The notes below the pieces were generated by a model that was not told the DNA's origin, did no database searches, and saw nothing but the letters and a program-made list of their open reading frames with translations. A DNA stretch of 64,000 nucleotides from Gammaproteobacteria bacterium (GTDB lineage: Bacteria > Pseudomonadota > Gammaproteobacteria > Thiohalomonadales > Thiohalomonadaceae), in assembly GCA_041687015.1 (NCBI GenBank), contig JAWLCT010000002.1, forward strand, positions 64,073 through 128,072. Direction: 5' to 3'. Within the stretch, counting starts at the first letter, position 1, and each line of letters opens with the position of its first letter. The position numbers and the translations under genes are program-made. Positions 28,602-47,007 of the stretch are shown here, in pieces.

Positions 28602-29999
28602 TCACGCGTCGAGGTTGTAGCGTTTGATCTTGCGCCACAGGGTGGACTTGTCGATGCCCAGGATTTCCGCGGCAAGGCTACGATCCCCCTGGGTCTCGCC
28701 CAGAATCTTGCGGATGAACCACGTTTCCAGTTCTTCCAGGCTCTGGAGCGGTATATGCCCGTCGCTCTGCACCTCGCCCTGGGGACCGTTGATGCGCGGC
28801 GGCAACAGCTCCGCACCGATTTTTTCCCCCTCACAGAGAATGACCATGCGCTGGACCATGTGTTCCAGCTCGCGCACATTGCCCGGCCAGTGATAGCGCA
28901 TCATCAGCGCCAGCACCTCGGTGGTGAGACCGCTCAGCTGTTTCTGATACTGCCGGGCGAACTTGTTGACGAAAAAGTAAGCCAGCAGCGGAATGTCTTC
29001 GCGGCGTTCCCGTAACGGCGGCAGGGCCAGGTCCATGACCATCAGGCGGTAGTAGAGGTCTTCCCGGAACTGGCCGTTTTTGATCATGTCGGCCATGCTC
29101 CGGTTGCTGGCCGCCAGGACCCGCACATCCACGTAATGCGGCTCGGTTTCCCCCATGGGATAGAAACCACCGTCCTCGAGAACGCGCAGCAGCTTGGCTT
29201 GCAGTGACAGGGTGGCGTTGTTGATTTCGTCGAGAAACAGCGTGCCACCGTTGGCAACGTCAAACAGTCCCGGTTTGTTCCGATCTGCGCCCGTGAAGGC
29301 GCCCTTGCGGTAGCCGAACAGCTCGCTCTCGATGAGGTGTTCCGGGATCGCGGCGCAGTTGAGGGCGACGAATGGACGATCACGACGCTTGCTGTTCGCA
29401 TGGATCTGACGCGCCACCACCTCCTTGCCACTGCCGCTCTCGCCGGTGATGAGCACACTGCAGTCGTAATCCGCCGCTGCCGCGATAATCTCGCCGACGC
29501 GGGCCATGGCCTTGGACTGGCCGATCAGGCCGCCCTCCTCATAGATCCGGCTGCGCGCACGCAGTCGACGGTTTTCGCGCCCGAGCAGATGGTGTTCCAA
29601 AGCGCGCTCCACCGTGCAGCGCAGTTCGAGATTTTCGAACGGCTTGCGCAGGTAGTCGAACGCCCCTTTCTTGAACGCTTCGATGGCGGAGTCGACGCTC
29701 GCATAGCCGGTAATCAGCACCACCTGGGTGAGCGGCCCCCGTTCTTTGGCGGCAGCGAGTACATCGAGACCCCCGCAGCCGGGCATGCGCAGGTCTGTCA
29801 CGACGACCCCTACATCGCGTTTTTCAAGCACACCCACCGCCTCTTCGCCATCGCGGGCGCAAACCACGTCGGCTTTGTCCGCCAGCGGTTCCAGCACGCT
29901 GGCGATCAGGCCACGCATGTTCTCGTCATCCTCACTGATGAGGATGACCGGGCGTACAGGATCTTCACTCACGCCGGTCACAGACATCACTGCACTCAT
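28602..29999 (-). CDS. Sigma-54-dependent response regulator (NtrC family: REC, AAA+, Fis-HTH)
   Basis: REC domain (VILISEDDENMR...VVVTDLRMPG). Walker A ITGESGSGKE, GAFTGA loop (GYRKGAFTGAD), WPGNVRELE. C-terminal HTH AAEILGIDKSTLWRKIKR. Confidence 0.93.
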   Translation of the reverse strand: MSAVMSVTGVSEDPVRPVILISEDDENMRGLIASVLEPLADKADVVCARDGEEAVGVLEKRDVGVVVTDLRMPGCGGLDVLAAAKERGPLTQVVLITGYASVDSAIEAFKKGAFDYLRKPFENLELRCTVERALEHHLLGRENRRLRARSRIYEEGGLIGQSKAMARVGEIIAAAADYDCSVLITGESGSGKEVVARQIHANSKRRDRPFVALNCAAIPEHLIESELFGYRKGAFTGADRNKPGLFDVANGGTLFLDEINNATLSLQAKLLRVLEDGGFYPMGETEPHYVDVRVLAASNRSMADMIKNGQFREDLYYRLMVMDLALPPLRERREDIPLLAYFFVNKFARQYQKQLSGLTTEVLALMMRYHWPGNVRELEHMVQRMVILCEGEKIGAELLPPRINGPQGEVQSDGHIPLQSLEELETWFIRKILGETQGDRSLAAEILGIDKSTLWRKIKRYNLDA

Positions 30000-31434
30000 T
30001 CACCACTCTCCCTGGATTTACCCCCGGCATACGTAGAATGAAACGTGCCCCCTTGGTGAAATCCGAGTCATAACGCACATAGCCGCCGCGGCGTACCATC
30101 ATCGCCTGGCAGATAGACAGCCCCAACCCGCTGCCTTCGCCGACCTGTTTGGTGGTGAAAAACGGGTCAAAGATCCGGCTGCGGATCTCTGCGGGAATGC
30201 CCGGTCCGTTATCTTCCACCACGATGGACACGAAACCGTTGGCATCATCGCGGGCGGCCAGGCGGATGCGGGGTTCATGGACGCCGTCCAGTGCCTGAAT
30301 GGCATTGAGAATCAGGTTGGTCAGTACGATATCCAGTTGCCCACAGCCGCCGTCCAGCAGTAGCTCGCCGGGCGTGAGGTCCAGCTCCACACGGATGCTG
30401 TAACGCTTGAGTTTGCAGGTGATGAAGGTGTCGATGAGCTCGCGGATAAACTGGTTGATATCGCAGGTTTCGCCACTGCACGGGTCCCTGCGCGCATAGT
30501 TGAGCAAGTCGTGGACGATGCGTGAACAGCGCTTGGTTTCGTCCCCCACGATGCCCGCATAACGGCTGAGTTTCTCGTCGGCGGCCGCCGCTTCGCGCAG
30601 CAATTGTGAATAGCCGAGGATGTTTCCCAGCGGCGTGTTCAGTTCATGGGCCACACCGGCGGCGAGCTGCCCCATGGCCACCAGTTTCTCCCGTATTGCC
30701 ACACTGTCCTGCAACTGGCGGTATTCGGTAATGTCCTGAACGGTGATGACAGCACCCATATCCGTTTCATGCTCAGTCAAGAAAGCGAGATTGACACTCA
30801 ACCAATGATCAGTGTCTTTCAGGGGTACATTTATTTCCTGGTTGCGTAATGGATGCTTGTAAAGAAACGCGTCGCGCAGGACCTCGCGATCGTTTTCGTT
30901 CAGATGGAGCAGGTGGAACAGGTTTTTCCCCACAAGCTGTTCCTGGGACAGACCGAATAGTTCCTCTGCGGTCTTGTTGACCCCTGAGATCTGCAGATCG
31001 TCGGCGATATGCAACAGCGCGCCCGGCAGACTCTGGAGGATGGCATCAATCTTGTTGCGCTCGACAAGCACCCTGGCCTGACATTCTTCCACGGTGGAAA
31101 ACATCCTGTGGAGAATGGCAATCATGCGGTTATATTCCACGGTCACGTCGTGGAGCAGGCGATCCCCTACGGGCAGCAGTTTGACCGGCTCAAGCAGTCC
31201 TTCCTGCGCGCGCTGGATACTGTCGCGCAGGCGGTACATCGCCCGGCGTTGAGAGAAAAAAAACAGCCCTGCCATGAGCAGGGCTACAATGGAGGAGGCG
31301 GAGATCACCGCCACGGGGGGAATGTCACCAAGAAGGGTGGTGACGAAAACAATCAAGAGAACACCGGCAATTGACGCAGCAAAGAAGCGCCAATCGCGTG
31401 GAAAGCGGATTGTTGGCCTTTGGTTCGGCATCAC
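29965..31434 (-). CDS. Membrane PAS histidine kinase with almost no periplasmic loop
   Basis: Two adjacent TM helices separated by about 5 residues. PAS region (NKIDAILQSLPGALLHI...VNKTAEELFG). H-box LAAGVAHELNTPLG. N, G1 and G2 boxes (NLILNAIQA, DNGPGI, GEGSGLGL). It overlaps the regulator gene by 35 nt. Confidence 0.9.
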   Translation of the reverse strand: MMPNQRPTIRFPRDWRFFAASIAGVLLIVFVTTLLGDIPPVAVISASSIVALLMAGLFFFSQRRAMYRLRDSIQRAQEGLLEPVKLLPVGDRLLHDVTVEYNRMIAILHRMFSTVEECQARVLVERNKIDAILQSLPGALLHIADDLQISGVNKTAEELFGLSQEQLVGKNLFHLLHLNENDREVLRDAFLYKHPLRNQEINVPLKDTDHWLSVNLAFLTEHETDMGAVITVQDITEYRQLQDSVAIREKLVAMGQLAAGVAHELNTPLGNILGYSQLLREAAAADEKLSRYAGIVGDETKRCSRIVHDLLNYARRDPCSGETCDINQFIRELIDTFITCKLKRYSIRVELDLTPGELLLDGGCGQLDIVLTNLILNAIQALDGVHEPRIRLAARDDANGFVSIVVEDNGPGIPAEIRSRIFDPFFTTKQVGEGSGLGLSICQAMMVRRGGYVRYDSDFTKGARFILRMPGVNPGRVVNECSDVCDRRE

Positions 31435-31488: not shown

Positions 31489-32649
31489 TTAAAAAATCAT
31501 CTGAAAGCCCAGCGTGGCCTGGTTGTAATCACGCAGGGAAACATCGGTCGGGTGGTCCTGGTCGAAATCCACAGACATGTACTCACCTGTGAACTTCAAC
31601 TTCTGGCCATCCAGATAGTAATTGAAGCCGGCTCCGCTTTTTGTATTGTCGAGGAGTCCGTCGTCCAGATTGTACTCGGCCTCGTCGTAGCGGGCAAAAA
31701 ACTGCAGCCGACCCGGTCCGACTTTGTTGGGAAGCAGATAACCGACCTTGGCGTAGTAGGCATCCAGCTCGGTGTTCAGCGGCAAAGCAGCGTCCGGGTC
31801 CTGATTAATCGCATCACCAACGCTGTAATCGAACACGGCCGCTGAAACGGTGAAGGTCCCCGCAGCAGTGGGATACTCGAAGAACATGTCCACCGTGGTG
31901 GCTTCGTAATCCTGCGCATCCTCGCGCAACGGGTAATCGGCATACGCGACGTCTGCCTGGGTGTCGTATGCGGCGCCGAGAGTAAACACCGTTTGCGTGC
32001 CCAGGTAGGTACCCCGGTAGCCATAATCGTACTCGGGGTCCAGGGGACTCCAGTGCACACGGGCAGTCAGGCGCGGAGAGTCCTTGGCGACTTCGTCGCC
32101 TTCGCGCCCGTCCGCTGCCATGACACGATACTGAAAAGCGCCGTCGGCCAGGTTGCCCCACAGCGCCACCCCGGTGTCGCGGCTCCCGCCGAATGGAGTA
32201 AACGAAATATCGCTGCGATCCAGGGTAAGCGGTTCGAGACAGGCCTCGAGGTTTTCTCGAGAAAAGGTGTTTTTGAAACGCCCGCCGATAAAACGCATGG
32301 CGTCGGAATAGTCGAGCGTCACGTAGGCGTCACGATAAAACACTTCGCGATCGTCGTTACCGTCTTTGCTGTCGCTGCCTGCCTCCAGCTGCGCATAGAA
32401 ACCGACGTAATCATTGTACTGGCCGGTGAACGTAAGACGGTTGCGGCGCAGGAAGAAATCGGTTTGGTCTCCCGAATCATTGGCGGACGTAAAGTCCTGC
32501 TGCTGAAGCCACATCTGCAGGGCGTAATTCACGGAGATATAGCCCTGTTCACCGAATTGAATCGAGGGACCGGCAAGCGCCATGCTGGGCAGGCCGGCAA
32601 TGAGTGCACCGGCAAGCAGACGGCGCGTCTTGTTAGCAATGACATCCAT
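31489..32649 (-). CDS. Outer-membrane porin, phosphate-selective porin O/P-like
   Basis: Signal peptide ...LPSMALAGP. Long alternating beta-strand pattern rich in Y/F/G/D. Terminal ...ATLGFQMIF. Confidence 0.8.
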   Translation of the reverse strand: MDVIANKTRRLLAGALIAGLPSMALAGPSIQFGEQGYISVNYALQMWLQQQDFTSANDSGDQTDFFLRRNRLTFTGQYNDYVGFYAQLEAGSDSKDGNDDREVFYRDAYVTLDYSDAMRFIGGRFKNTFSRENLEACLEPLTLDRSDISFTPFGGSRDTGVALWGNLADGAFQYRVMAADGREGDEVAKDSPRLTARVHWSPLDPEYDYGYRGTYLGTQTVFTLGAAYDTQADVAYADYPLREDAQDYEATTVDMFFEYPTAAGTFTVSAAVFDYSVGDAINQDPDAALPLNTELDAYYAKVGYLLPNKVGPGRLQFFARYDEAEYNLDDGLLDNTKSGAGFNYYLDGQKLKFTGEYMSVDFDQDHPTDVSLRDYNQATLGFQMIF

Positions 32650-32650
32650 A

Positions 32651-33151
32651 CTACTTGCCTCCCCCCATGACGCTCAGGTAGCGGGTAACTTTCGTGTCGG
32701 CATCGGCCGAATGACAGCTGGCACAGCTTTGTTCGGTGTGTTGGCGCGGGTTGGCGATGAGCTTGTTATGCGCCATTTCCTTGCGAATGATGCGTGGGTT
32801 CCCGTTGTGGCACCCGGCGCAGGAATTGTTGACGGTGCGGTGTTCCGCATGCCATGGCGCGGTGGCGGGGTCCTCGTTGGGCGCATCCGCACGCGTACCG
32901 TTGTGACATTTGAAACAACTCGAAGCCCCGAGTCCGCAGGCGTTTGCCACGCTGATCAGCGAGAATCCGCTCACACCCTCGTGGACCGCAGCCAGGCTTT
33001 CCGCGCCCCAGCCTTCCTCCCCGGAACCATCGGCCACGGATGTCGGCAGGGATTCGAGCACCGCAGCGCCGACGGCCACGACGGTCAGCGTCACCACGGC
33101 GAAACTGGCGTTACGCAATGTGCGTCCCAAGCGCTTTATGAAGGCTTCCAT
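32651..33151 (-). CDS. Trihaem c-type cytochrome, membrane-anchored or secreted
   Basis: Three CxxCH motifs (CFKCH, CAGCH, CASCH) after an N-terminal hydrophobic helix (ASFAVVTLTVVAVGAAVL). GGAGAA RBS before the ATG at 33151. Confidence 0.82.
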   Translation of the reverse strand: MEAFIKRLGRTLRNASFAVVTLTVVAVGAAVLESLPTSVADGSGEEGWGAESLAAVHEGVSGFSLISVANACGLGASSCFKCHNGTRADAPNEDPATAPWHAEHRTVNNSCAGCHNGNPRIIRKEMAHNKLIANPRQHTEQSCASCHSADADTKVTRYLSVMGGGK

Positions 33152-33152
33152 A

Positions 33153-33398
33153 TCATTCTCCTTTGGAGGTTTCTCGTTGCTGCGATTTCGGGCCGGGATC
33201 GACCCGTTCTTGTTGTTTCTGTTGGTTTCGCCGTTCCGCTTCGCGAATGGCGCGTTCACTGAGCCCGTCATTGCACATGCACGGTGGACCGCTTCGGAAT
33301 TTCAGGCGTCCGTCCCGAACCGGTTCGCCGGACTGAGCGAGCACCGAGGTGGCCGTCAACGCCAGTACCGTCAGGAGTGTTCCATCAACAATCCGCAT
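33153..33398 (-). CDS. Small secreted protein with a CxC motif (81-aa precursor)
   Basis: Signal peptide MRIVDGTLLTVLALTATSVLAQS. The predicted mature part contains PPCMCNDG and a highly charged tail. It fills the gap between the two cytochrome genes, overlapping the upstream gene and ending 1 nt before the downstream start. Confidence 0.45.
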   Translation of the reverse strand: MRIVDGTLLTVLALTATSVLAQSGEPVRDGRLKFRSGPPCMCNDGLSERAIREAERRNQQKQQERVDPGPKSQQRETSKGE

Positions 33399-34668
33399 GG
33401 CGATTGCACTCCTGACGGATGCGCGCGTCCTCGCGCGTGAGCAACATGTCCAATGAGCGGCTGACGCTCAGCGCCTCGAAGCGCGTTTGACGCGCCTCTT
33501 CGAGTGCCCGGCGCAGCTCGGCCACGGTGAGTGCATCCATGCGATCCGCCTGTCCGAGGCTGTGGGCAAACACGCGCTCGTAATGTTCGCGTGGCGCCAC
33601 ATGCAACTGAGCGGCAATCCGCCAGCCGGTCGTTTGCGGTAGCGGGAAGCCTCGCTCGAATTCGAGCCGACCGCCGGCCGGAATACGGGTGTCGAACAGT
33701 TCGCGCGTGATGCCCACGTCTGCACCCCAACCGATCACTTCCTCCCCGAGGGGCTGTGTTTCTCCGTCAGGCCCATGCAGGCTGAGGCGCACATACACCT
33801 TGGGCACCATGTAGGTGGGGAAGTGGTGGCCGGCACCGACATTGGTGACCGTCACGCGCACGGCGCCGCGACCGTTGTCCCGAAACGGCACCAGGTCCAC
33901 ATTCACCGCAGCGCGCACCGTGGCCGGGTCGTGCACACCCTTGAACAGGTGCTGCCGGTCGGGCATATGGCATTGCTGACAGGACTGCTTCCCGGCGAAC
34001 GGGCTGGCCCGCCACTGCGCAAACGTGTCTTCCTGCAACTTGCCGGCAAGTCGCGGTCCGTCATCCGGAAACTGGTGGCAGGTCGCGCAGAACCGACTGT
34101 CGCCAAAGGCCTCATTGGCGGTGAAGCCGTTGTGGGCGGTGCCTTTCAGTCCGTTCTGCGGTCGCGCAGGCGGGCCGAAGCGTTGATGCTCACGCACGTG
34201 GCACACGGCGCACGCCACGCCCTGGCGGTGAAGATCGGCCGGGATGTAATCGGGGCGCGGCCGCTGCGGCGCGGCAGACCAGCCGCGCTCCAGTGCCACC
34301 AGGGCCTTCTGCTCGGCGAGCGGCGCGTGGCAGCGTAGACACCGGTTGCCCTGCGCCTGATCCATGAGCCGCAACTGCCATTGGATACCCGGGCCCATGG
34401 CACGGCTGTGCAAACTGCTACGCCAGGCCTCCCATTGATCGGCGTGGCACTGGGCGCACGCCGCGGCGCCCAGAGACGCCTCCAGGGCCGAACTGCCCGC
34501 CGCGGGTGCACCTTGGGTCGGCAGGGGATGATTCCAGTGATTGCTCAGGAATGTGTCCACAGGATCCTCCGCACTCGGGGTGATGGCGGCGACGCGGCCG
34601 AGCCACACCTGCCAGGCCAGGAACACCAGGCCTGCCGCCACCACCATGCCCATCCACGTCCGCTTCAT
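33385..34668 (-). CDS. Pentahaem c-type cytochrome with a non-haem C-terminal domain
   Basis: N-terminal TM/signal MKRTWMGMVVAAGLVFLAW. Five CxxCH motifs (CAQCH, CLRCH, CAVCH, CATCH, CQQCH). About 170-aa C-terminal region (VTVTNVGAGHHFPTYMVPK...). Confidence 0.85.
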   Translation of the reverse strand: MKRTWMGMVVAAGLVFLAWQVWLGRVAAITPSAEDPVDTFLSNHWNHPLPTQGAPAAGSSALEASLGAAACAQCHADQWEAWRSSLHSRAMGPGIQWQLRLMDQAQGNRCLRCHAPLAEQKALVALERGWSAAPQRPRPDYIPADLHRQGVACAVCHVREHQRFGPPARPQNGLKGTAHNGFTANEAFGDSRFCATCHQFPDDGPRLAGKLQEDTFAQWRASPFAGKQSCQQCHMPDRQHLFKGVHDPATVRAAVNVDLVPFRDNGRGAVRVTVTNVGAGHHFPTYMVPKVYVRLSLHGPDGETQPLGEEVIGWGADVGITRELFDTRIPAGGRLEFERGFPLPQTTGWRIAAQLHVAPREHYERVFAHSLGQADRMDALTVAELRRALEEARQTRFEALSVSRSLDMLLTREDARIRQECNRHADC

Positions 34669-34708: not shown

Positions 34709-36145
34709 TCAACCGCCGCAAGGGTTTGCCGGCAGTGTCGCGCCACTGTCACCTGAACCGCTGCTCTCGGTTGTGCCGAGCTTGTACAAACGGTCCTCGC
34801 GGACAATGGCGTTGGCGCTGTGCGCGTACGGGTCCTTGATCTCGCGGGTTGCCACACTCAAGGCGGAGGCCGCTGGCATAAAGTGCGAGCGTGTATCCGT
34901 ACGCCAGGGCGAGTCGCTCGGCAGCAGGTAATTGCCCGTGGCGTCCTGGAGATGGGAAAGCGAGTTCCACTCGACCATCGCGCCGTCATAGAAGCGGGTC
35001 GGCTTGCCCAGGATCACGGCGCTGGCGATGCCGGTGATCATGGCGCGCATGGTGGTTTCGCAATAGGTGTAAATGGTGTCGCCCGGCTGGTAGGCGTTGC
35101 CGACGCCGACACCCTGGTAAGTGGCATCAAAGAAACCCTTGCCGGATCCGTCGATGTAGCCGGCCAGGTAGTCGGCCAACTCCGCCTTGGTCTTGAAGCG
35201 CACACTATCGCCTGCAGTGCCCACCAGAAGGTTGGTGAAATTCAGTTGCAGTGCGCCCCACGGATGACCCTGACGGGAGCCACCGTTTTGGAAGATGCCG
35301 CCGCCGTCACCCGTCGCTTCGCCACCGCTGTATTGTTCGACACTACGGGCGTCCCAGATGAACACACCGTCGGCGAGGTCGTTGGTGTCGCTGGTCGGCA
35401 GTACGGCAAGCATGTCCTGCAGCGTGGCTTGCAACACGGTGTTGTCCGTCTTCAGCTCGGTCACACTGAAGGTGCCGGGTATGGTGGGGAGATTGGTTGC
35501 CGTGGCCTGGAAGTCCCCGGGGGCGGTCATTGCGCCATCGGTCACCTGCCAGTCGTTCGACCCGTTCAGCAGCGCAAGGTGCGAAGCGTCCACGCCCCAG
35601 TAGCGCAGGGTATACCAGCAGCGTCCCTGAGCCATCGCATTGCTCGTACTACCCGTGCCTTGCGCACAAACGATCATGTCCCGGCTTGGGTCGATGGCGT
35701 GCTTCTGCAGCAGTGCGTCAATGGACGGCCCGTCCAGCACCATGCTTTGAGTGGTGATGACGCCGTTGGAACGCACCATCGACCAGTCAGTGCCGGGTAC
35801 GAGGTAGGTGACCACGTTTGTGCCGTTGGCGGCGATGAATTCGGTACCCCCAGGCCCTGCCGACACCTGCAAGATCACCAGTTTGCCCGTCACGCCGGCG
35901 GGCCGCTCGTTGGCCCAGTCATCCTTCCAGCGCTTTAGCGTCGTCCCGGTGATCAGACCGTTGACGTTATCGTCATAGTCATCGGCCGAGGCTTGGGCGA
36001 TGTCGGCGGCCGAATTCACTTTGATGCCCACGGCCGGGGCGGTATCGTCCTCGCCACCGCCACAGGCGCTTAGCACCACCGCGAACAGGCACGCGCCAAC
36101 ACGGCCAGCCCACCCCCCGTGTGAAATCCGTGTTACTTCCGTCAT
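34709..36145 (-). CDS. Lipoprotein with tandem rhodanese-like domains and a C-terminal flexible tail ending Cys-Gly-Gly
   Basis: Lipobox VVLSAC. Domain 1 is MIVCAQGTGS...LRYWGV...LLNGSNDW. Domain 2 is IYTYCETTMRAMITG...FYDGAMVEW. The tail is TTESSGSGDSGATLPANPCGG*. AGGAG RBS before the ATG at 36145. Confidence 0.8.
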   Translation of the reverse strand: MTEVTRISHGGWAGRVGACLFAVVLSACGGGEDDTAPAVGIKVNSAADIAQASADDYDDNVNGLITGTTLKRWKDDWANERPAGVTGKLVILQVSAGPGGTEFIAANGTNVVTYLVPGTDWSMVRSNGVITTQSMVLDGPSIDALLQKHAIDPSRDMIVCAQGTGSTSNAMAQGRCWYTLRYWGVDASHLALLNGSNDWQVTDGAMTAPGDFQATATNLPTIPGTFSVTELKTDNTVLQATLQDMLAVLPTSDTNDLADGVFIWDARSVEQYSGGEATGDGGGIFQNGGSRQGHPWGALQLNFTNLLVGTAGDSVRFKTKAELADYLAGYIDGSGKGFFDATYQGVGVGNAYQPGDTIYTYCETTMRAMITGIASAVILGKPTRFYDGAMVEWNSLSHLQDATGNYLLPSDSPWRTDTRSHFMPAASALSVATREIKDPYAHSANAIVREDRLYKLGTTESSGSGDSGATLPANPCGG

Positions 36146-36203: not shown

Positions 36204-36401
36204 TCAGTCAGCCACTCCACCCGCGAACACGGGCACTGCACCACTTTCAAGCAAATCGAGAATGCGCTCGGCATCGGAGGCCGCGGCGCACTCGACCCGG
36301 CAGCCCGCCGTGGCCAGGGCCGCGGAAAGCCGCGGCACGAATCCATCCGCGGACGCGCCGTCGAGCGCGCTGGAAATCAGGACAATGGTTTTGGTGTTCA
36401 T
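36204..36401 (-). CDS. Miniature DsrH/TusB-like protein (65 aa)
   Basis: MNTKTIVLISSALDG... The ATG overlaps the upstream stop (ATGA). The assignment rests on context and a weak pattern only. Confidence 0.4.
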   Translation of the reverse strand: MNTKTIVLISSALDGASADGFVPRLSAALATAGCRVECAAASDAERILDLLESGAVPVFAGGVAD

Positions 36402-36649
36402 ATCAGGTACACCGCATCTGCCGTGGCGATCCTGCTGGCCAGCGCGGCCATGCCCGCGGTGGTGTCGATCGCCAGTTGCTCCACCGGGACATCGGCGAAA
36501 TCCAAAGCTTCAAGGTGCTCTTCGGCATCGGGTGCCAGTTCGCCGCAGATGGCGACATTGACGGCGTCGTCGAGCAGCGTCAGGCCGGCTGCCATACGCA
36601 GTGCCTCGGTGCGTCTGTTCATCGCCACAACCAGTATTTGCTTTTGCAC
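36398..36649 (-). CDS. Miniature DsrF/TusC-like protein (83 aa)
   Basis: MQKQILVVAMNRRTEALRMAAGLTLLDD...ADAVYLI has a DsrE/F/H-like beta-alpha start and end. GAGGAGG RBS upstream. Confidence 0.45.
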   Translation of the reverse strand: MQKQILVVAMNRRTEALRMAAGLTLLDDAVNVAICGELAPDAEEHLEALDFADVPVEQLAIDTTAGMAALASRIATADAVYLI

Positions 36650-36658
36650 AGAACCTCC

Positions 36659-36964
36659 TCAGAACACCACGACGCGATCGGAAAGGTGCGCCAGCTCCGC
36701 ATCCTGGTACTGCCCCCCGATCACCACGTGTTCGGCGATGTTTTTCGGCACCTCAACGGAGTAGCGTTCAACGCTCAGTTCACAAACCGCAAGCCAGGTC
36801 TTGCCATCAGCGGCCAGACGCTGAAGCGTCAGTTCATGGAGTGCGTGGACACCGCTGTCGGTCAGGAAACAGCGCAGATGCCAACCACGCTCCGCGGCGG
36901 CCTGCAAGGCACGGCAAGCGTCGGGAACGAGGGACTGTTCGGTGATCACCACGCCGAGATTCAT
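36659..36964 (-). CDS. DsrE-family small protein (101 aa)
   Basis: MNLGVVITEQS..., a conserved Cys in WLAVCELSVERY, and the family-typical end HVVIGGQYQDAELAHLSDRVVVF. Confidence 0.62.
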   Translation of the reverse strand: MNLGVVITEQSLVPDACRALQAAAERGWHLRCFLTDSGVHALHELTLQRLAADGKTWLAVCELSVERYSVEVPKNIAEHVVIGGQYQDAELAHLSDRVVVF

Positions 36965-36968
36965 GGGG

Positions 36969-37220
36969 TCAGGCCTTCCGAATCAGCCAGGTGAACGAGC
37001 CGCCATTGTCTTTGCGCTCGAACAGTTCATTACCGTCGGTATCGCACATGGCAATGATGGATTCACCGGAAGACGGATTGTCGAAAAGCAGCGTCAGCAC
37101 GTCGCCGGAAGCCATCTTCTGTAACGCTTTTTTTGTATACATTTGCGGATGCGGACAGCTGTAGCCTCTGACGTCCAGGGAAAAGGTACCGTCACCCGTT
37201 TGCTCGAATTTCACTGCCAT
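36969..37220 (-). CDS. TusA-like sulfurtransferase (83 aa)
   Basis: SLDVRGYSCPHPQMYTKKAL...GDVLTLLFDNPSS carries the CP-x-P active-site motif. GGAG RBS before the ATG at 37220. Confidence 0.85.
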   Translation of the reverse strand: MAVKFEQTGDGTFSLDVRGYSCPHPQMYTKKALQKMASGDVLTLLFDNPSSGESIIAMCDTDGNELFERKDNGGSFTWLIRKA

Positions 37221-37249
37221 CTCTCGGCTCCTTGTCAGGCTAAAGTCAG

Positions 37250-38701
37250 TTAGAGATCGAATTCGCCGCTGCGCGAGGCGCGCCATTCAAGCCACGTGTT
37301 GAACGCCTTCACGCCCAGATAACCACCGCCGACCATGCCGGCCAGGAACACCCAGCCGCTGAGATCGCCGTTGGTTACCGTCGCGAAAAAGGCGCCGATG
37401 TTGCAGCCCATGCCGATGCGCGCACCGATACCCATGAGGGTGCCGCCGACCAGGGCGAACACGGCGGTCTCCAGGCTCGGCAGCTTCCACTTGAATTCAC
37501 GGCGCATGTGGGCCATTACGGCGGCCCCGAGAATGATGCCGATGGACATGAAGCCGGGTGCGTTGAGCAGCGGATTGGGCAGGCCGTTGTCCAGACCGAA
37601 GAAAATGTTGTCCATGTTGTCCACACCCAACTGGTTCAGAATCCAGCCGCCCCACTGGGCCTCCTGGGTGGTGATGTACCAGTAGCCGGGATCAAACACG
37701 GTGCCCTGCAGCGAAAGACCGTTTTCGTAACCCATCGCGGCCAGCAGTTCGCCAAAGTTGAAAATGTTGTAGTGCTCGCGCAGGGCACCGGTGATCCACA
37801 TCTGCATGCCGGCGAAAATGCCCAATCCCGCCCCGGCCAACGCGGTGCTCTTCGAGGATGTCACCATGGCCCACAAGCCGCGCAGATCGCTGCCCAGGCT
37901 CGGCGCGACGGCTTCGCGGCGCAGGTAACTGCGGCGGAAGTAGCGCACGTAGAGCAGCACGAGCAGTACCAGCGACGGCAGGATGGCCGACAGCAGCGCG
38001 TTGGCGAGAAAGGCCCCCGCGACGGTGCCGTCCATGCCCAGATCGGCGGCCACGGTGCTGCCCTTCAGATCCCAGACGTAACCCGCAGTGAATTGGTCGA
38101 ACCAACCTTGGGTGACCGACAGTTCGGCAGGCATGTCTTTGGCCTGTGCCGATGCCGTCCAGGCGGCGGGGACCAGCGCATCGAGCCATCCGCCGGCGGC
38201 AACGATAATCGCCTGGGAAAAGGAGATGGCGAAGATGACCAGCATGGACCCGACGTTGCCCTCGCCGGCCTTGTACAACGAGCCGGACGCGCAGCCGCCC
38301 GTGAACACCATGCCGAAACCGAAAATGAGACCGCCGATGATCACGTGCCAGCCGAGCGGGTGCGGGCCGAAGGTGCTGAACCCTGTGGCCTGTACCGTTG
38401 CAGCGGTCAGGGAGAACAGGCAGACGGCGATGAGCATTCCCACCGCCATCCGGGGCACGCCCACGGCAAACAGATCGCGCACTGCCGAGGCCATGCAAAA
38501 GCGCCCGTACTGCAGAAGCAGGCCATAGATGAGCCCAAACCAGGCGTAGACGAGCAGATAGACGAAGCGGGTATCCACGCTCAGCGCAGCGATGGAACCG
38601 AGCACCACCAGCGCGACGATGATGCTGGCGGCCTTGGTGTTGCCCTGGGTCAAACCGGCAATGAACGCGGGTTTGGCTTGCAGTACGTGTTCTTCGCTCA
38701 T
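37250..38701 (-). CDS. YeeE/YedE-family sulfur-compound permease, double-length (483 aa)
   Basis: About 12 hydrophobic helices with the family Cys motifs GRFCMASAVRD, FTGGCASGSLY and RIGMGCNIGAF. Confidence 0.9.
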   Translation of the reverse strand: MSEEHVLQAKPAFIAGLTQGNTKAASIIVALVVLGSIAALSVDTRFVYLLVYAWFGLIYGLLLQYGRFCMASAVRDLFAVGVPRMAVGMLIAVCLFSLTAATVQATGFSTFGPHPLGWHVIIGGLIFGFGMVFTGGCASGSLYKAGEGNVGSMLVIFAISFSQAIIVAAGGWLDALVPAAWTASAQAKDMPAELSVTQGWFDQFTAGYVWDLKGSTVAADLGMDGTVAGAFLANALLSAILPSLVLLVLLYVRYFRRSYLRREAVAPSLGSDLRGLWAMVTSSKSTALAGAGLGIFAGMQMWITGALREHYNIFNFGELLAAMGYENGLSLQGTVFDPGYWYITTQEAQWGGWILNQLGVDNMDNIFFGLDNGLPNPLLNAPGFMSIGIILGAAVMAHMRREFKWKLPSLETAVFALVGGTLMGIGARIGMGCNIGAFFATVTNGDLSGWVFLAGMVGGGYLGVKAFNTWLEWRASRSGEFDL

Positions 38702-38754: not shown

Positions 38755-39108
38755 TCAGTCTGTCGACAGGCCTTTGCGTAGGTAGACGCGCCAGTGATCC
38801 AGTTCCTTGATGGTGCCGAGATGCGTGCCACACACCACGAACATCAAAGCGGGCAGTGTCTCGACGGTGGCCGGGTTGTCGGACAACACCTCGATCACCT
38901 GGCCCTCCTGCAACTGGTCCATCACCTTCATGGTGAGTAACTGAGGCCGTGGGCAGGCGGCGCCCATGCAGTCCAGGGAGCGCTCGACCGTGACCGTGGC
39001 ACCTGCAAGCGCAACGCTTCGTGGTCCGCGTGTGACGGAGCCTCGCGGCGTTTTCTTCCAGCCTTGCCACCAGCGCAGTCCCACTCGGCGCCCCCAGGTA
39101 CTTGCCAT
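38755..39108 (-). CDS. TusA-like sulfurtransferase with an Arg/Trp-rich N-terminal extension (start uncertain: ATG 39108 or GTG 39084)
   Basis: Core SLDCMGAACPRPQLLTMKVMDQL..GQVIEVLSDNPATVETLP has the CP-x-P motif. No in-frame start lies close to the core. The sigma-54 promoter match at 39122-39137 favours the GTG at 39084. Confidence 0.72.
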   Translation of the reverse strand: MASTWGRRVGLRWWQGWKKTPRGSVTRGPRSVALAGATVTVERSLDCMGAACPRPQLLTMKVMDQLQEGQVIEVLSDNPATVETLPALMFVVCGTHLGTIKELDHWRVYLRKGLSTD

Positions 39109-39121
39109 GCAGCCCCCATAA

Positions 39122-39137
39122 AGCAGGCTTCGTGCCA
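39122..39137 (-). promoter_or_regulatory. Candidate sigma-54 (-24/-12) promoter of the sulfur/cytochrome cluster
   Basis: The minus strand reads TGGCACGAAGCCTGCT, against the consensus TGGCAC-N5-TTGCW. GG and GC are at the canonical spacing, with one mismatch in the -12 box. A sigma-54 activator is encoded at the distal end of the same cluster. Confidence 0.55.
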
Positions 39138-39230
39138 TACCCAAATAGCTCGGTGTATCAATCGGTTAGGAAAATTCCCGGATTTGAGGTCAATGCAAGA
39201 TGCAACGCAAAGGCGGGTTCAGGCGGGCGC

Positions 39231-39247
39231 GATTGCATTTTGCAATC
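39231..39247. promoter_or_regulatory. Perfect 17-bp palindrome, candidate enhancer (UAS) for the sigma-54 activator
   Basis: GATTGCATTTTGCAATC lies about 95-125 bp upstream of the sigma-54 promoter match. A further direct repeat ATGCAAGATGCAAC is at 39192-39205. Confidence 0.45.
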
Positions 39248-45122: not shown

Positions 45123-45446
45123 ATGATGAACGAATCGGATTTCAATCGCCTGGTCGATGCCCAGTTGTTGCGCATCGAGGAGGCCATCGATGCCAGCGGC
45201 GCGGACATCGATTACGAGAACGCCGGTGGCATTCTCACCCTGCACTTCGAAAACGGCTCACAGATCGTGATCAACCGCCAAACGCCGGTACGCCAGATCT
45301 GGGTCGCCGCCCGCAGCGGCGGGTTTCATTTTGCCCACGACGAAGCCAACGGCGTGTGGCGCAGCGACAAGGACGGCCGCGACCTGATGGCCGCGCTGAG
45401 CGAGCTGGTGAGCGCCCAGGCGGGCGAGCCGGTGGCGTTGGGCTGA
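45123..45446 (+). CDS. cyaY: Iron donor protein CyaY (frataxin homologue)
   Basis: MNESDFNRLVDAQLLRIEEAID...GILTLHFENGSQIVINRQTPVRQIWVAARSGGFHF. Confidence 0.92.
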   Translation: MMNESDFNRLVDAQLLRIEEAIDASGADIDYENAGGILTLHFENGSQIVINRQTPVRQIWVAARSGGFHFAHDEANGVWRSDKDGRDLMAALSELVSAQAGEPVALG

Positions 45447-45514
45447 TCCCGATCAATATCCCCGCGCCCGAGGGGGCGAATATACTTCCGGACCAGGGAA
45501 AAGGGAGGGAACGT

Positions 45515-46561
45515 ATGCTTAAGGGGTTCTTGCTCGCGGCGGCGTTCGCCATGGTGCCCACGGCCATGGCAGCACCGGACGGCGCCCGGCTCTACAGTCA
45601 ACACTGTGCGGCCTGCCATGGCCTGCATGGAGAGGGCGGTGTGGGTGTGCCCCTCGCGCTGCCCGATTTTCTCTCCACCGCGGATGACGATTTCCTGCGC
45701 AAGACCCTGCGCAATGGCAGGCCGGGCCGCGTGATGCCCGCCTTCCGCTCCCTCAGCGACACCGAGGTGGACGCCCTGGTGGCGCACCTGCGCAGCTTCG
45801 CCAAGCCCGGCGCACCGGCGCCCCGCAAACTGTCCACCCAATCCGTGCAGGGGAACGCGACGCGCGGCGGTGAACTGTTCGCCACCCACTGCGCCAGTTG
45901 CCACGGGGCCAACGGCGAAGGCGGCCATGGCACGGGGGTGACCTTCTCGCGCCCGCGCAACCTGCCCATCATGCCGCCCGCGCTGAACAATCCCGGCTTC
46001 CTGGCGGCCGCCTCGGACGCGATGATCAAGGCGACGCTCATGCGCGGGCGCGAGGGCACGCCCATGATTTCCTATCTGGACCAGGGCCTGTCCGAACAGG
46101 ACATCGACGATATCGTCGCCTTCGTGCGCAGCTTCGAACAGCGCGCGCCCGCGAAAATCCGCGCGCCCGTGGACGAGCCCATGTTCCTGGAAGCCGAGTC
46201 GTCCTATTCCCTCGAGGAGACGGTCGAAAACGTCAAGCGGGCGGCGATTGGCAAAAACTTCCGCATCATCCGCGAACAAAGCCTGGAGCACGGCTTCTTC
46301 CCCGAGGACCAGGAGAATGCCAAGCAGGTCATCGTCTATTTCTGTAATTTCAATTTCATCAACCAGGCGCTCAGCCTCGACCCGCGCGTTGGCCTGTTCC
46401 TGCCCTGCCGCGTCACCGTGGTGGAGCAGGACGGGGTGGTAAAAGTGCTGAGCATCAATCCCAAGCACCTTTCCGCGCTGTACAACAACCGGGAGCTCGA
46501 TGAAGCCTGCGATCAGATGACCGAACTGTACGAAGGCATCCTGGAGGAGGCGACGCTATGA
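45515..46561 (+). CDS. Dihaem cytochrome c fused to a DUF302 domain
   Basis: Signal peptide MLKGFLLAAAFAMVPTAMA. Two class-I modules (CAACHG...M, CASCHG...M). The C-terminal 130 aa resemble DUF302 (VIVYFCNFNFINQAL...PCRVTVVEQDG). GGGAGGGA RBS. Confidence 0.8.
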   Translation: MLKGFLLAAAFAMVPTAMAAPDGARLYSQHCAACHGLHGEGGVGVPLALPDFLSTADDDFLRKTLRNGRPGRVMPAFRSLSDTEVDALVAHLRSFAKPGAPAPRKLSTQSVQGNATRGGELFATHCASCHGANGEGGHGTGVTFSRPRNLPIMPPALNNPGFLAAASDAMIKATLMRGREGTPMISYLDQGLSEQDIDDIVAFVRSFEQRAPAKIRAPVDEPMFLEAESSYSLEETVENVKRAAIGKNFRIIREQSLEHGFFPEDQENAKQVIVYFCNFNFINQALSLDPRVGLFLPCRVTVVEQDGVVKVLSINPKHLSALYNNRELDEACDQMTELYEGILEEATL

Positions 46562-47007
46562 GATTGCCACGGCTGCTAGCCTTTGCAGGCCTGTTGCTCG
46601 CCTCCGTCGCCCATGGCGAGCAACTGTTCATGGCGCGCTCGCCGCTGTCCTTCCCCGAGACCATGCTGGCCTTGCAGGATGCCATCACCACCCAGGGCTA
46701 CACGCTCTCCCGTGTGCAACACGTGGACGTGGGGCTGACGGAGATGGGTTTCACCACCGACAAGTACCGCATCGTATTCTTCGGCAAGCCCGAGGAGATC
46801 CGCACCTTGTCGGCCCGTTACCCGCAGCTCGTCCCCTATCTGCCGCTGCAGGTGACCATTTTCGCCGAAGGTGAGGAAACGCTGGTGGTCGGCGCCGATC
46901 CGCTCATGCTTCAGCGTCTCGTGCCGGACCCGGCCATGCAGCCCGTATTTGCACGTTGGCACGGCGCGCTGGTCGCCATCATGGAAAGCCTGCGGCAACT
47001 GAGATAG
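46558..47007 (+). CDS. Secreted DUF302 domain protein
   Basis: Signal peptide MRLPRLLAFAGLLLASVAHG. DUF302 pattern (YRIVFFGKPE...LPLQVTIFAEGEET). The ATG overlaps the upstream stop (ATGA). Confidence 0.8.
   Translation: MRLPRLLAFAGLLLASVAHGEQLFMARSPLSFPETMLALQDAITTQGYTLSRVQHVDVGLTEMGFTTDKYRIVFFGKPEEIRTLSARYPQLVPYLPLQVTIFAEGEETLVVGADPLMLQRLVPDPAMQPVFARWHGALVAIMESLRQLR

Follow-up and report, generated by a model that had tools for sequence, protein, structure and literature searches.

Why should a lipid-anchored rhodanese end in the Cys-Gly-Gly that also closes the sulfur carrier protein SoxY? The question is raised by a gene on the minus strand (34709..36145) of a stretch of 64,000 nucleotides (nt) from a Gammaproteobacteria bacterium of the family Thiohalomonadaceae (assembly GCA_041687015.1, contig JAWLCT010000002.1, positions 64,073 to 128,072), the whole of which is called the window here. 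It encodes a tandem rhodanese that belongs to the ExtH-like family and has the lipid anchor of an outer-membrane-type lipoprotein. On balance, the evidence presented here leans slightly towards a built-in sulfur carrier arm that acts together with the rhodanese site.

The open reading frame (ORF) encodes 478 amino acids and was characterized by its DNA, NCBIfam, AlphaFold2 and Foldseek. A plausible ATG lies at 36145 and the stop codon at 34709-34711 on the minus strand. The last codons read TGC GGC GGT TGA on the DNA, as the original prediction had stated, and the protein ends in ...TLPANPCGG. The signal peptide with the lipobox VVLSAC (36062..36145, minus strand) is likewise present as described; its lipidated Cys28 (codon 36062-36064) is invariant in 120/120 sequences and is followed by Gly at position +2. 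A Gly at this position fits a lipoprotein sorted to the outer membrane. Among public gene calls, P0391 (478 amino acids) has the start used here, whereas P0001 (440 amino acids, Joint Genome Institute) begins at an internal Val and is thus devoid of signal peptide and lipobox.

Pfam reports one weak Rhodanese match for the protein (residues 263-395) and no other domain, and a sequence search against solved structures gave no match, so that a comparison of folds was needed. An AlphaFold2 model built on 65 sequences has a mean predicted local distance difference test score (pLDDT) of 88 and a predicted template modeling score of 0.87, and is confident for residues 41-459. Foldseek matches in the PDB are bovine rhodanese, A. 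vinelandii RhdA, M. tuberculosis CysA3/SseA and mercaptopyruvate sulfurtransferases, with E = 1e-10 to entries 8q5z, 1e0c and 3aay and target-normalised template modeling scores of 0.67-0.72. Because these matches are tandem rhodaneses, the protein is a tandem rhodanese itself. Judged from the secondary structure and confidence of the model, domain 1 covers about residues 41-205 (35531..36025, minus strand) and is probably inactive. Domain 2 covers about residues 230-459 (34769..35458, minus strand) and carries the loop C362-E-T-T-M-R (Cys362 codon 35060-35062). Two rhodanese-fold domains, an inactive N-terminal one and a C-terminal one with the catalytic Cys in an invariant six-residue loop, are features that the protein shares with tandem-domain rhodaneses of the thiosulfate/mercaptopyruvate sulfurtransferase type (PF00581).

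Both domains had been credited with a loop Cys in the original prediction. The tandem fold holds and Cys362 is invariant; Cys160 of domain 1 (IVCAQGTGS) is not conserved, its alignment column containing Ala in 53, Cys in 36 and Val in 27 sequences. Domain 1 thus corresponds to the inactive domain commonly seen in tandem rhodaneses, and the protein has one active site, not two. Only three Cys residues are invariant: Cys28 of the lipobox, Cys362 of domain 2 in the motif YCETTxRAMITG, and Cys476 of the tail. Most orthologues contain an insertion with two Cys (CAxAYCxP) before FQNxGSRQGHP, which the window protein lacks (residues ~275-285, nt ~35290-35320).

The C-terminal arm (34712..34780, minus strand) consists of a Gly/Ser/Thr linker (residues 456-471) and the sequence LPANPCGG, with the codon of Cys476 at 34718-34720. 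Residues 460-478 have pLDDT values below 50, and the tail is therefore predicted to be disordered. A protein search delivered 627 relatives, of which the best 120 (57-74% identical) were aligned; 110 of them end in CGG and the terminal Cys is aligned in all. The original prediction had named a non-conserved terminal Cys as the result that would count against it, but a Cys stands within the last four residues of 198 out of 199 unique homologues (52-74% identity). The residues ahead of this Cys are similarly constant, with Asn at -2 in 197/198, Pro at -1 in 196/198 and Pro at -4 in 183/198; 'GG' follows it in 174 of 198 homologues. The linker, described before as Ser/Gly/Thr-rich, varies in sequence and length but is indeed composed of 41% Gly, 16% Ser and 11% Thr, with at least 16 residues in the close homologues and a median of 21 in representatives clustered at 50% identity. 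No systematic CGG-type ending was found in other ORFs of the window or of 80 related loci, spurious ORFs aside. Judged by the alignment, conservation of the tail is far beyond chance, and that of P-x-N-P-C-G-G suggests a recognition peptide with a binding groove on a partner. As a separate observation, the rhodanese of the nearest relatives has diverged far more than its neighbours (64% identity vs 76-92% in L001; ~52% vs ~80% in L071 and L075), which suggests fast evolution or allele replacement. The same divergence was remarked for Geobacter ExtH by Chan et al. 2018.

The original prediction had missed that the protein belongs to an already named family, ExtH-like, and stands beside an ExtI porin. 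The NCBIfam equivalog model ExtH (NF040901) matches it with 90.1 bits (E = 1.5e-25, profile positions 19-360 of 430), below the cut-off of 200. With ExtH of the G. sulfurreducens cluster extHIJKL(MNOPQS) it shares the lipoprotein nature, the tandem rhodanese fold, the catalytic Cys of domain 2 and a Gly/Ser linker that ends in Cys, and the cluster likewise contains an ExtI porin and an MccSep-type pentahaem cytochrome. ExtI is encoded in 72 of 80 loci, which come from species-representative genomes with an orthologue, mostly of sulfur oxidisers. The selenocysteine-containing MccSep (ExtKL) is not co-encoded; the neighbouring cytochrome reaches 52 bits against a cut-off of 250, and lacks selenocysteine and the haem-ligating Cys. 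Architecture and context thus place the window protein among distant ExtH-like proteins, but neither its score nor its cytochrome partner is that of an ExtH equivalog. Further differences are the absence of ExtJ, the tail NPCGG instead of GGGGC with Cys as the last residue, and the junction of the cluster with genes for YeeE, TusA and DsrEFH type II in sulfur-oxidising Gammaproteobacteria rather than in sulfur reducers. Genetic evidence for a role in selenite/tellurite reduction or sulfur respiration exists for Geobacter only (PMC5877670, PMC13510729).

Ten distant representatives considered as ExtH equivalogs scored 44-69 bits each and none is a true ExtH; true ExtH was reached via metagenome loci with an MccSep closely related to that of G. 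sulfurreducens (94% identical in L081). Located upstream of ExtI and beside the selenocysteine-type MccSep, the Geobacter-type ExtH ends in ...DRAYRSTVSGSTGGGSSSGGGGC or ...STGGGSSSGGGGC (GGGGC), the Cys being the last residue, and has the same triad of Cys residues (lipobox, domain 2, terminal). In a family survey of 150 representatives, clustered at 50% identity, the C-termini fall into four classes: a linker with N[PA]CGG, in some even GGGGGGCGG (P0135); a linker with terminal ...GGGC or with Cys 1-4 residues from the end; tail-less proteins that end just after a conserved D-x-A-Y-K; and a minority with a Gly-Gly-Tyr end. By these termini the C-terminal Cys arm appears as a hallmark of the wider ExtH-like family, Geobacter-type ExtH included. 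A flexible tail ending in Gly-Gly-Tyr or Pro-Gly-Tyr was observed in L113 (4517-5884, minus strand), P0166, P0209, P0234, P0244, P0259, P0267 and P0268, and some of the Tyr-tail members have a Cys directly after the D-x-A motif. In the ExtH/ExtI literature covered, which calls ExtH a rhodanese-like lipoprotein and to which the paper of Jahan et al. 2019 on ExtH localisation did not belong, the terminus is not mentioned.

The strongest functional evidence for the arm is comparative, from family members in which the two thiols are split between paralogues. The catalytic Cys is lost (YD-x-DG and similar) in 17 representatives, 16 of which keep the tail Cys, while all 42 tail-less representatives keep the catalytic Cys (Fisher exact p = 1.6e-5, uncorrected for phylogeny). 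In 6/6 loci examined, an arm-bearing member without catalytic Cys is accompanied by a tail-less paralogue with catalytic Cys. The arm-bearing gene lies directly upstream of the catalytic one in L115, L116, L117 and L120, and two small genes stand between them in L118 and L119. The window protein and Geobacter ExtH have both thiols on one chain. Such adjacent paralogues represent a natural fission of carrier and catalyst, as would be expected if the rhodanese site loads or unloads the arm.

The ExtI porin is encoded downstream of the rhodanese at 31489..32649 (minus strand), with a pentahaem and a trihaem cytochrome gene in between, and exceeds the NCBIfam ExtI cut-off of 150 with 346 bits. It has a single Cys137 (codon 32239-32241) in the motif FSRENLEAC-x-x-PLTLDRS, which is invariant in 70/70 orthologues from sulfur oxidisers and in 12/12 ExtI-like porins of Geobacter-type loci at ~40% overall identity. 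The ExtI paper goes no further than to mention a single cysteine in the porin. An ExtI profile found no match in the PDB by sequence, so that the fold was compared here as well; an AlphaFold2 model built from database homologues (pLDDT 85) has 16 strands, and OprO and OprP are the top Foldseek matches. Cys137 is predicted in a 30-residue segment between strands 5 and 6. This segment we take to be loop L3 of 16-strand porins, which folds into the pore. Cys137 could serve as an additional station in a thiol relay. An arm threading through an MtrB-type porin-cytochrome conduit had also been considered and was dropped, as ExtI is predicted to be a 16-strand OprP-like porin.

In the carrier-arm reading, the protein would have two working thiols, Cys362 at the rhodanese site and Cys476 at the tip of a disordered arm of at least 16 residues. 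Zero-valent sulfur from polysulfide, dissolved or activated S0, or sulfane sulfur derived from thiosulfate would enter via, or be captured at, the co-encoded ExtI porin. Cys362 would pick it up as persulfide or polysulfide and exchange it with the mobile Cys476, and the arm would bring it to partners beyond the reach of the protein body. As partners, the two multihaem cytochromes encoded next to it might perform a redox step, and/or the YeeE-TusA-DsrEFH type II relay in the inner membrane might take the sulfur on to oxidation in the cytoplasm. P-x-N-P-C-G-G would be the part recognised by partner proteins, like the GGCGG end of SoxY. An arm of ~20 residues could, by its length, span 60-70 Å when extended, more than the size of the protein. 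That the genes of the cluster (YeeE, TusA, DsrEFH type II, cytochromes, ExtI) are all sulfur-handling or redox genes is counted for a sulfur carrier arm. From sequence, predicted structure and gene context we infer this function as a whole, including that the arm binds sulfur, which way the transfer runs, which proteins are the partners and which face of the outer membrane carries the lipoprotein. Of the earlier proposal of a sulfurtransferase with a built-in carrier arm, the arm thus stands as conserved, disordered, at least 16 residues long and with its Cys almost always kept where the rhodanese Cys is missing; the sulfurtransferase has one active site.

Several points weigh against the carrier arm. 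As many as 42 representatives are armless and some others have a Gly-Gly-Tyr tail instead of Cys, and the arm is therefore not essential to the basic function of the fold. The Fisher test of tail versus catalytic Cys ignores shared ancestry. A sulfur adduct on Cys476 is itself inferred, the reach of the arm to Cys362 or to a partner is derived solely from length, and the similarity to SoxY amounts to three residues. An ExtI-like porin keeps its Cys beside a rhodanese with a GGYGK tail, and the porin Cys and the arm Cys are therefore not strictly coupled. OprP-like channels are also narrow, which makes it uncertain whether the arm can touch the L3 Cys directly.

Cys476 could instead be a resolving or regulatory residue, which attacks the Cys362 persulfide and releases sulfide with formation of an intramolecular disulfide or trisulfide, or switches the enzyme off upon oxidation, with no delivery elsewhere. 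Both Cys residues are invariant in the subfamily, and ~20 disordered residues suffice for folding back on the active site. Yet 16 representatives keep the tail Cys without a rhodanese Cys in the same polypeptide, from which a separate role of the tail Cys follows. The Pro and Asn conserved around it suggest that something recognises the tail, and after fission the partner Cys stands on a different polypeptide, so that a transfer would already be intermolecular. Fission is hard to reconcile with a purely intramolecular regulatory disulfide, and we consider this explanation unlikely.

Slightly less probable again is a structural tether, in which Cys476 would form a stable disulfide with the Cys of ExtI or of another envelope protein and hold the lipoprotein at the porin. 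The one invariant unpaired Cys of ExtI speaks for it, as does the title of Jahan et al. 2019, which gives ExtI a part in localising ExtH within the Geobacter cell. On the other side, the ExtI Cys is kept beside the Cys-less GGYGK rhodanese, no ExtI match turned up among those neighbours of the arm-bearing members in L115-L120 that were tested, and the predicted position of the ExtI Cys in the internal L3 of a 16-strand barrel is hard to reach for a permanent link. The carrier arm might also extend into a thiol relay of ExtI and the ExtH-like lipoprotein across the outer membrane, in which sulfane sulfur from outside would be bound covalently on the L3 Cys inside the porin, passed to the Cys of the Gly-rich arm reaching into the pore, and handed on to the rhodanese Cys and the cytochromes or YeeE-TusA-DsrEFH. 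We regard this extension as speculative and, in its entirety, improbable. If true, the thiol-bearing outer-membrane proteins long postulated to mobilise elemental sulfur would thereby be identified, and polysulfide would have the entry route left open by the MccSep study.

The terminal thiolate or persulfide may also be a docking peptide or haem ligand, in an axial or active-site position of a cytochrome, which would provide the Cys/selenocysteine chemistry of MccSep in trans, comparable to SoxAX-SoxY. The original prediction had referred to cytochromes, and these are really the next two genes after the rhodanese. The pentahaem c-type cytochrome (33385..34668, minus strand; five CxxCH; in 76/80 loci) matches the MccSep structure PDB 9wt8 with E = 1.6e-5 and is a distant relative of MccSep/ExtKL, a pentahaem selenoprotein of the periplasm that acts as polysulfide reductase and is indispensable for sulfur respiration (PMC13510729). 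It keeps the motif N-x-G-A-G-H-x-x-P and is without equivalents of the haem-ligating Cys239 and Sec325 (GAGHHFPTYM vs HAGHSIPDGU in MccSep), a gap that an external thiol could fill. Pentahaem cytochromes also accompany the arm-bearing members in L118 and L119. Geobacter-type ExtH, however, has the arm although its MccSep possesses its own Cys and selenocysteine; the eight conserved non-motif His of the window cytochrome suffice for bis-His ligation of five haems; and no cytochrome is found beside the arm-bearing gene in L115, L116 and L120. A ligand role is accordingly rated as doubtful, a little below the tether.

An artefactual or trivial ending, by a mis-called stop, selenocysteine read-through or a functionless low-complexity tail, has next to no probability: TGA is the stop in 72/80 homologues, but its share in the neighbouring genes equals that in the rhodanese gene, the other 8 loci use TAA (6) or TAG (2), a second stop follows immediately in 9 loci, and conservation of the terminal motif is near total. 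Selenocysteine at the TGA was rejected as unlikely on stop usage and on erratic read-through lengths from 0 to ~470 codons; in the window, read-through would extend the protein by 97 codons, into the next gene.

The resemblance to SoxY that had been proposed for the Cys-Gly-Gly arm requires qualification. In SoxY, the carrier subunit of SoxYZ, a Cys on the C-terminal carrier arm holds the intermediates of the Sox thiosulfate-oxidation pathway (PMC5336275), which is a precedent for the principle. Shared with it are a flexible end peptide on which the Cys is followed by Gly-Gly at the carboxy terminus, and the proposed role as covalent sulfur carrier between enzymes; some relatives of the window protein even end in GGGGGGCGG (P0135). 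The window protein ends in P-x-N-P-C-G-G, not GGCGG, and has only C-G-G-COOH in common with SoxY. Its fold is unrelated, with Rhodanese as the only Pfam domain, it has a lipoprotein signal versus the Tat signal of SoxY, and its carrier is fused to its own sulfurtransferase. No SoxZ, SoxAX or SoxB was found by Pfam among the cluster genes or 20 flanking ORFs scanned (~16.2-49.9 kb). The likeness thus stands for the Cys-Gly-Gly-COOH on a flexible end and fails for fold, signal peptide, partner and neighbouring genes; by analogy the protein would work like SoxY in principle, but it is not a member of the SoxY family.

Other known carriers resemble the window protein in part. Sud of Wolinella succinogenes and SbdP of Aquifex aeolicus are periplasmic rhodaneses thought to bind polysulfide sulfur and supply redox enzymes, and share with the window protein the location of a rhodanese outside the cytoplasm. 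To our knowledge Sud is soluble and consists of a single rhodanese domain, and neither a lipid anchor nor a Cys arm at the C-terminus occurs in Sud or SbdP. DsrC/TusE follow the same principle, with sulfur shuttled from protein to protein on a conserved Cys close to the C-terminal end of a mobile arm; these are cytoplasmic and of another fold, with a short and partly ordered arm that has two Cys in DsrC.

The wider cluster occurs mostly in sulfur oxidisers, and the genomes with an orthologue include Thiobacillus, Thiohalobacter, Thiohalomonas, Thiogranum, Sulfuricellaceae, Sideroxydans, Gallionella, Rubrivivax, Azohydromonas and Ca. Thiodiazotropha; the nearest loci are from uncultured Gammaproteobacteria and Thiohalomonadaceae. 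All of the following cluster genes are on the minus strand. At the head, upstream of YeeE, stands a second TusA-like gene with a CPRP motif (38755..39144; Pfam TusA 53 bits), whose start is probably downstream of 39144. YeeE/YedE, a sulfur transporter (37250-38701; Sulf_transp 157 bits), and TusA (36969-37286; 72 bits) follow (36969..38701; 77/80 loci). Three small genes (36204..36964; 77-78/80 loci) precede the rhodanese, encoding a DsrE-like protein with a weak Pfam DsrE match (36659-36964) and proteins of 83 (36398-36649) and 65 amino acids (36204-36401). The small genes of the YeeE-TusA-DsrEFH type II ('YTD') cluster were identified in 2026 as the DsrEFH type II sulfur transferase (PMC13293266), to which the three window genes together correspond. 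Between the pentahaem cytochrome and ExtI lies the small trihaem cytochrome (32651..33271; probable start Met41, nt 33151; in 73/80 loci). It has an extra invariant Cys seven residues ahead of the first CxxCH (ANACGxGASSCFKCH), and its local 'NACG' resembles the rhodanese tail N[PA]CG. A PAS histidine kinase (29965-31434) and a sigma-54-dependent response regulator (28602-29999) close the cluster (28602..31434; syntenic in 67-70/80 loci).

Upstream of the cluster, a sigma-54-type promoter-like site TGGCAC-N5-CTGCT (39122..39137, minus strand), assigned by resemblance to the consensus, is in keeping with the sigma-54 activator that the cluster itself encodes. Ahead of the site stand the inverted repeat GATTGCAAAATGCAATC and repeated TTGCA motifs (39210-39245, minus strand), which may be activator binding sites. 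A sigma-54-like TGGCCCACG-N3-TTGC is conserved 20-40 nt past the rhodanese stop in L002, L004, L008, L024, L028 and others. A corresponding site between rhodanese and cytochrome is absent from the window, where a single pattern match inside the cytochrome gene is at chance level. Outside the cluster, a fusion of a dihaem cytochrome c with a DUF302 domain stands ahead of a second protein of the DUF302 type, encoded separately (45356-47007, plus strand).

The family name and the carrier-arm principle are already known. The literature searched yielded nothing that connects the Ext and YTD modules or describes the window cluster in sulfur oxidisers, nor did it describe the combination of rhodanese and carrier arm, its family-wide conservation, the fission of carrier and catalyst, the invariant porin Cys or the Ext-YTD fusion in sulfur oxidisers. 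In the model of Rohwerder and Sand 2003 for acidophilic Acidithiobacillus, thiol-bearing outer-membrane proteins activate elemental sulfur; according to PMC6335251, they were never identified. The window lipoprotein is the kind of protein asked for, in the envelope of sulfur oxidisers, with a free thiol and with a dedicated porin adjacent, its surface exposure being hypothetical here. For sulfur reducers, the 2026 MccSep paper calls the route of polysulfide into the periplasm unknown and considers that further sulfur-transfer components may be involved (PMC13510729).

Concrete residues are now available for mutation, namely Cys476, Cys362 and Cys137 of ExtI. Geobacter, which is amenable to genetics, offers the terminal Cys of its ExtH as the counterpart. 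The Ext and YTD clusters, so far treated apart, are joined in one conserved 10-kb unit in at least 80 species. If the carrier reading is true, the covalent carrier-arm principle of SoxY would have arisen on an unrelated fold. For sulfur oxidisers and sulfur reducers alike, the finding touches on the question of how zero-valent sulfur in insoluble or polymeric form becomes activated at the envelope of the cell and gets across.

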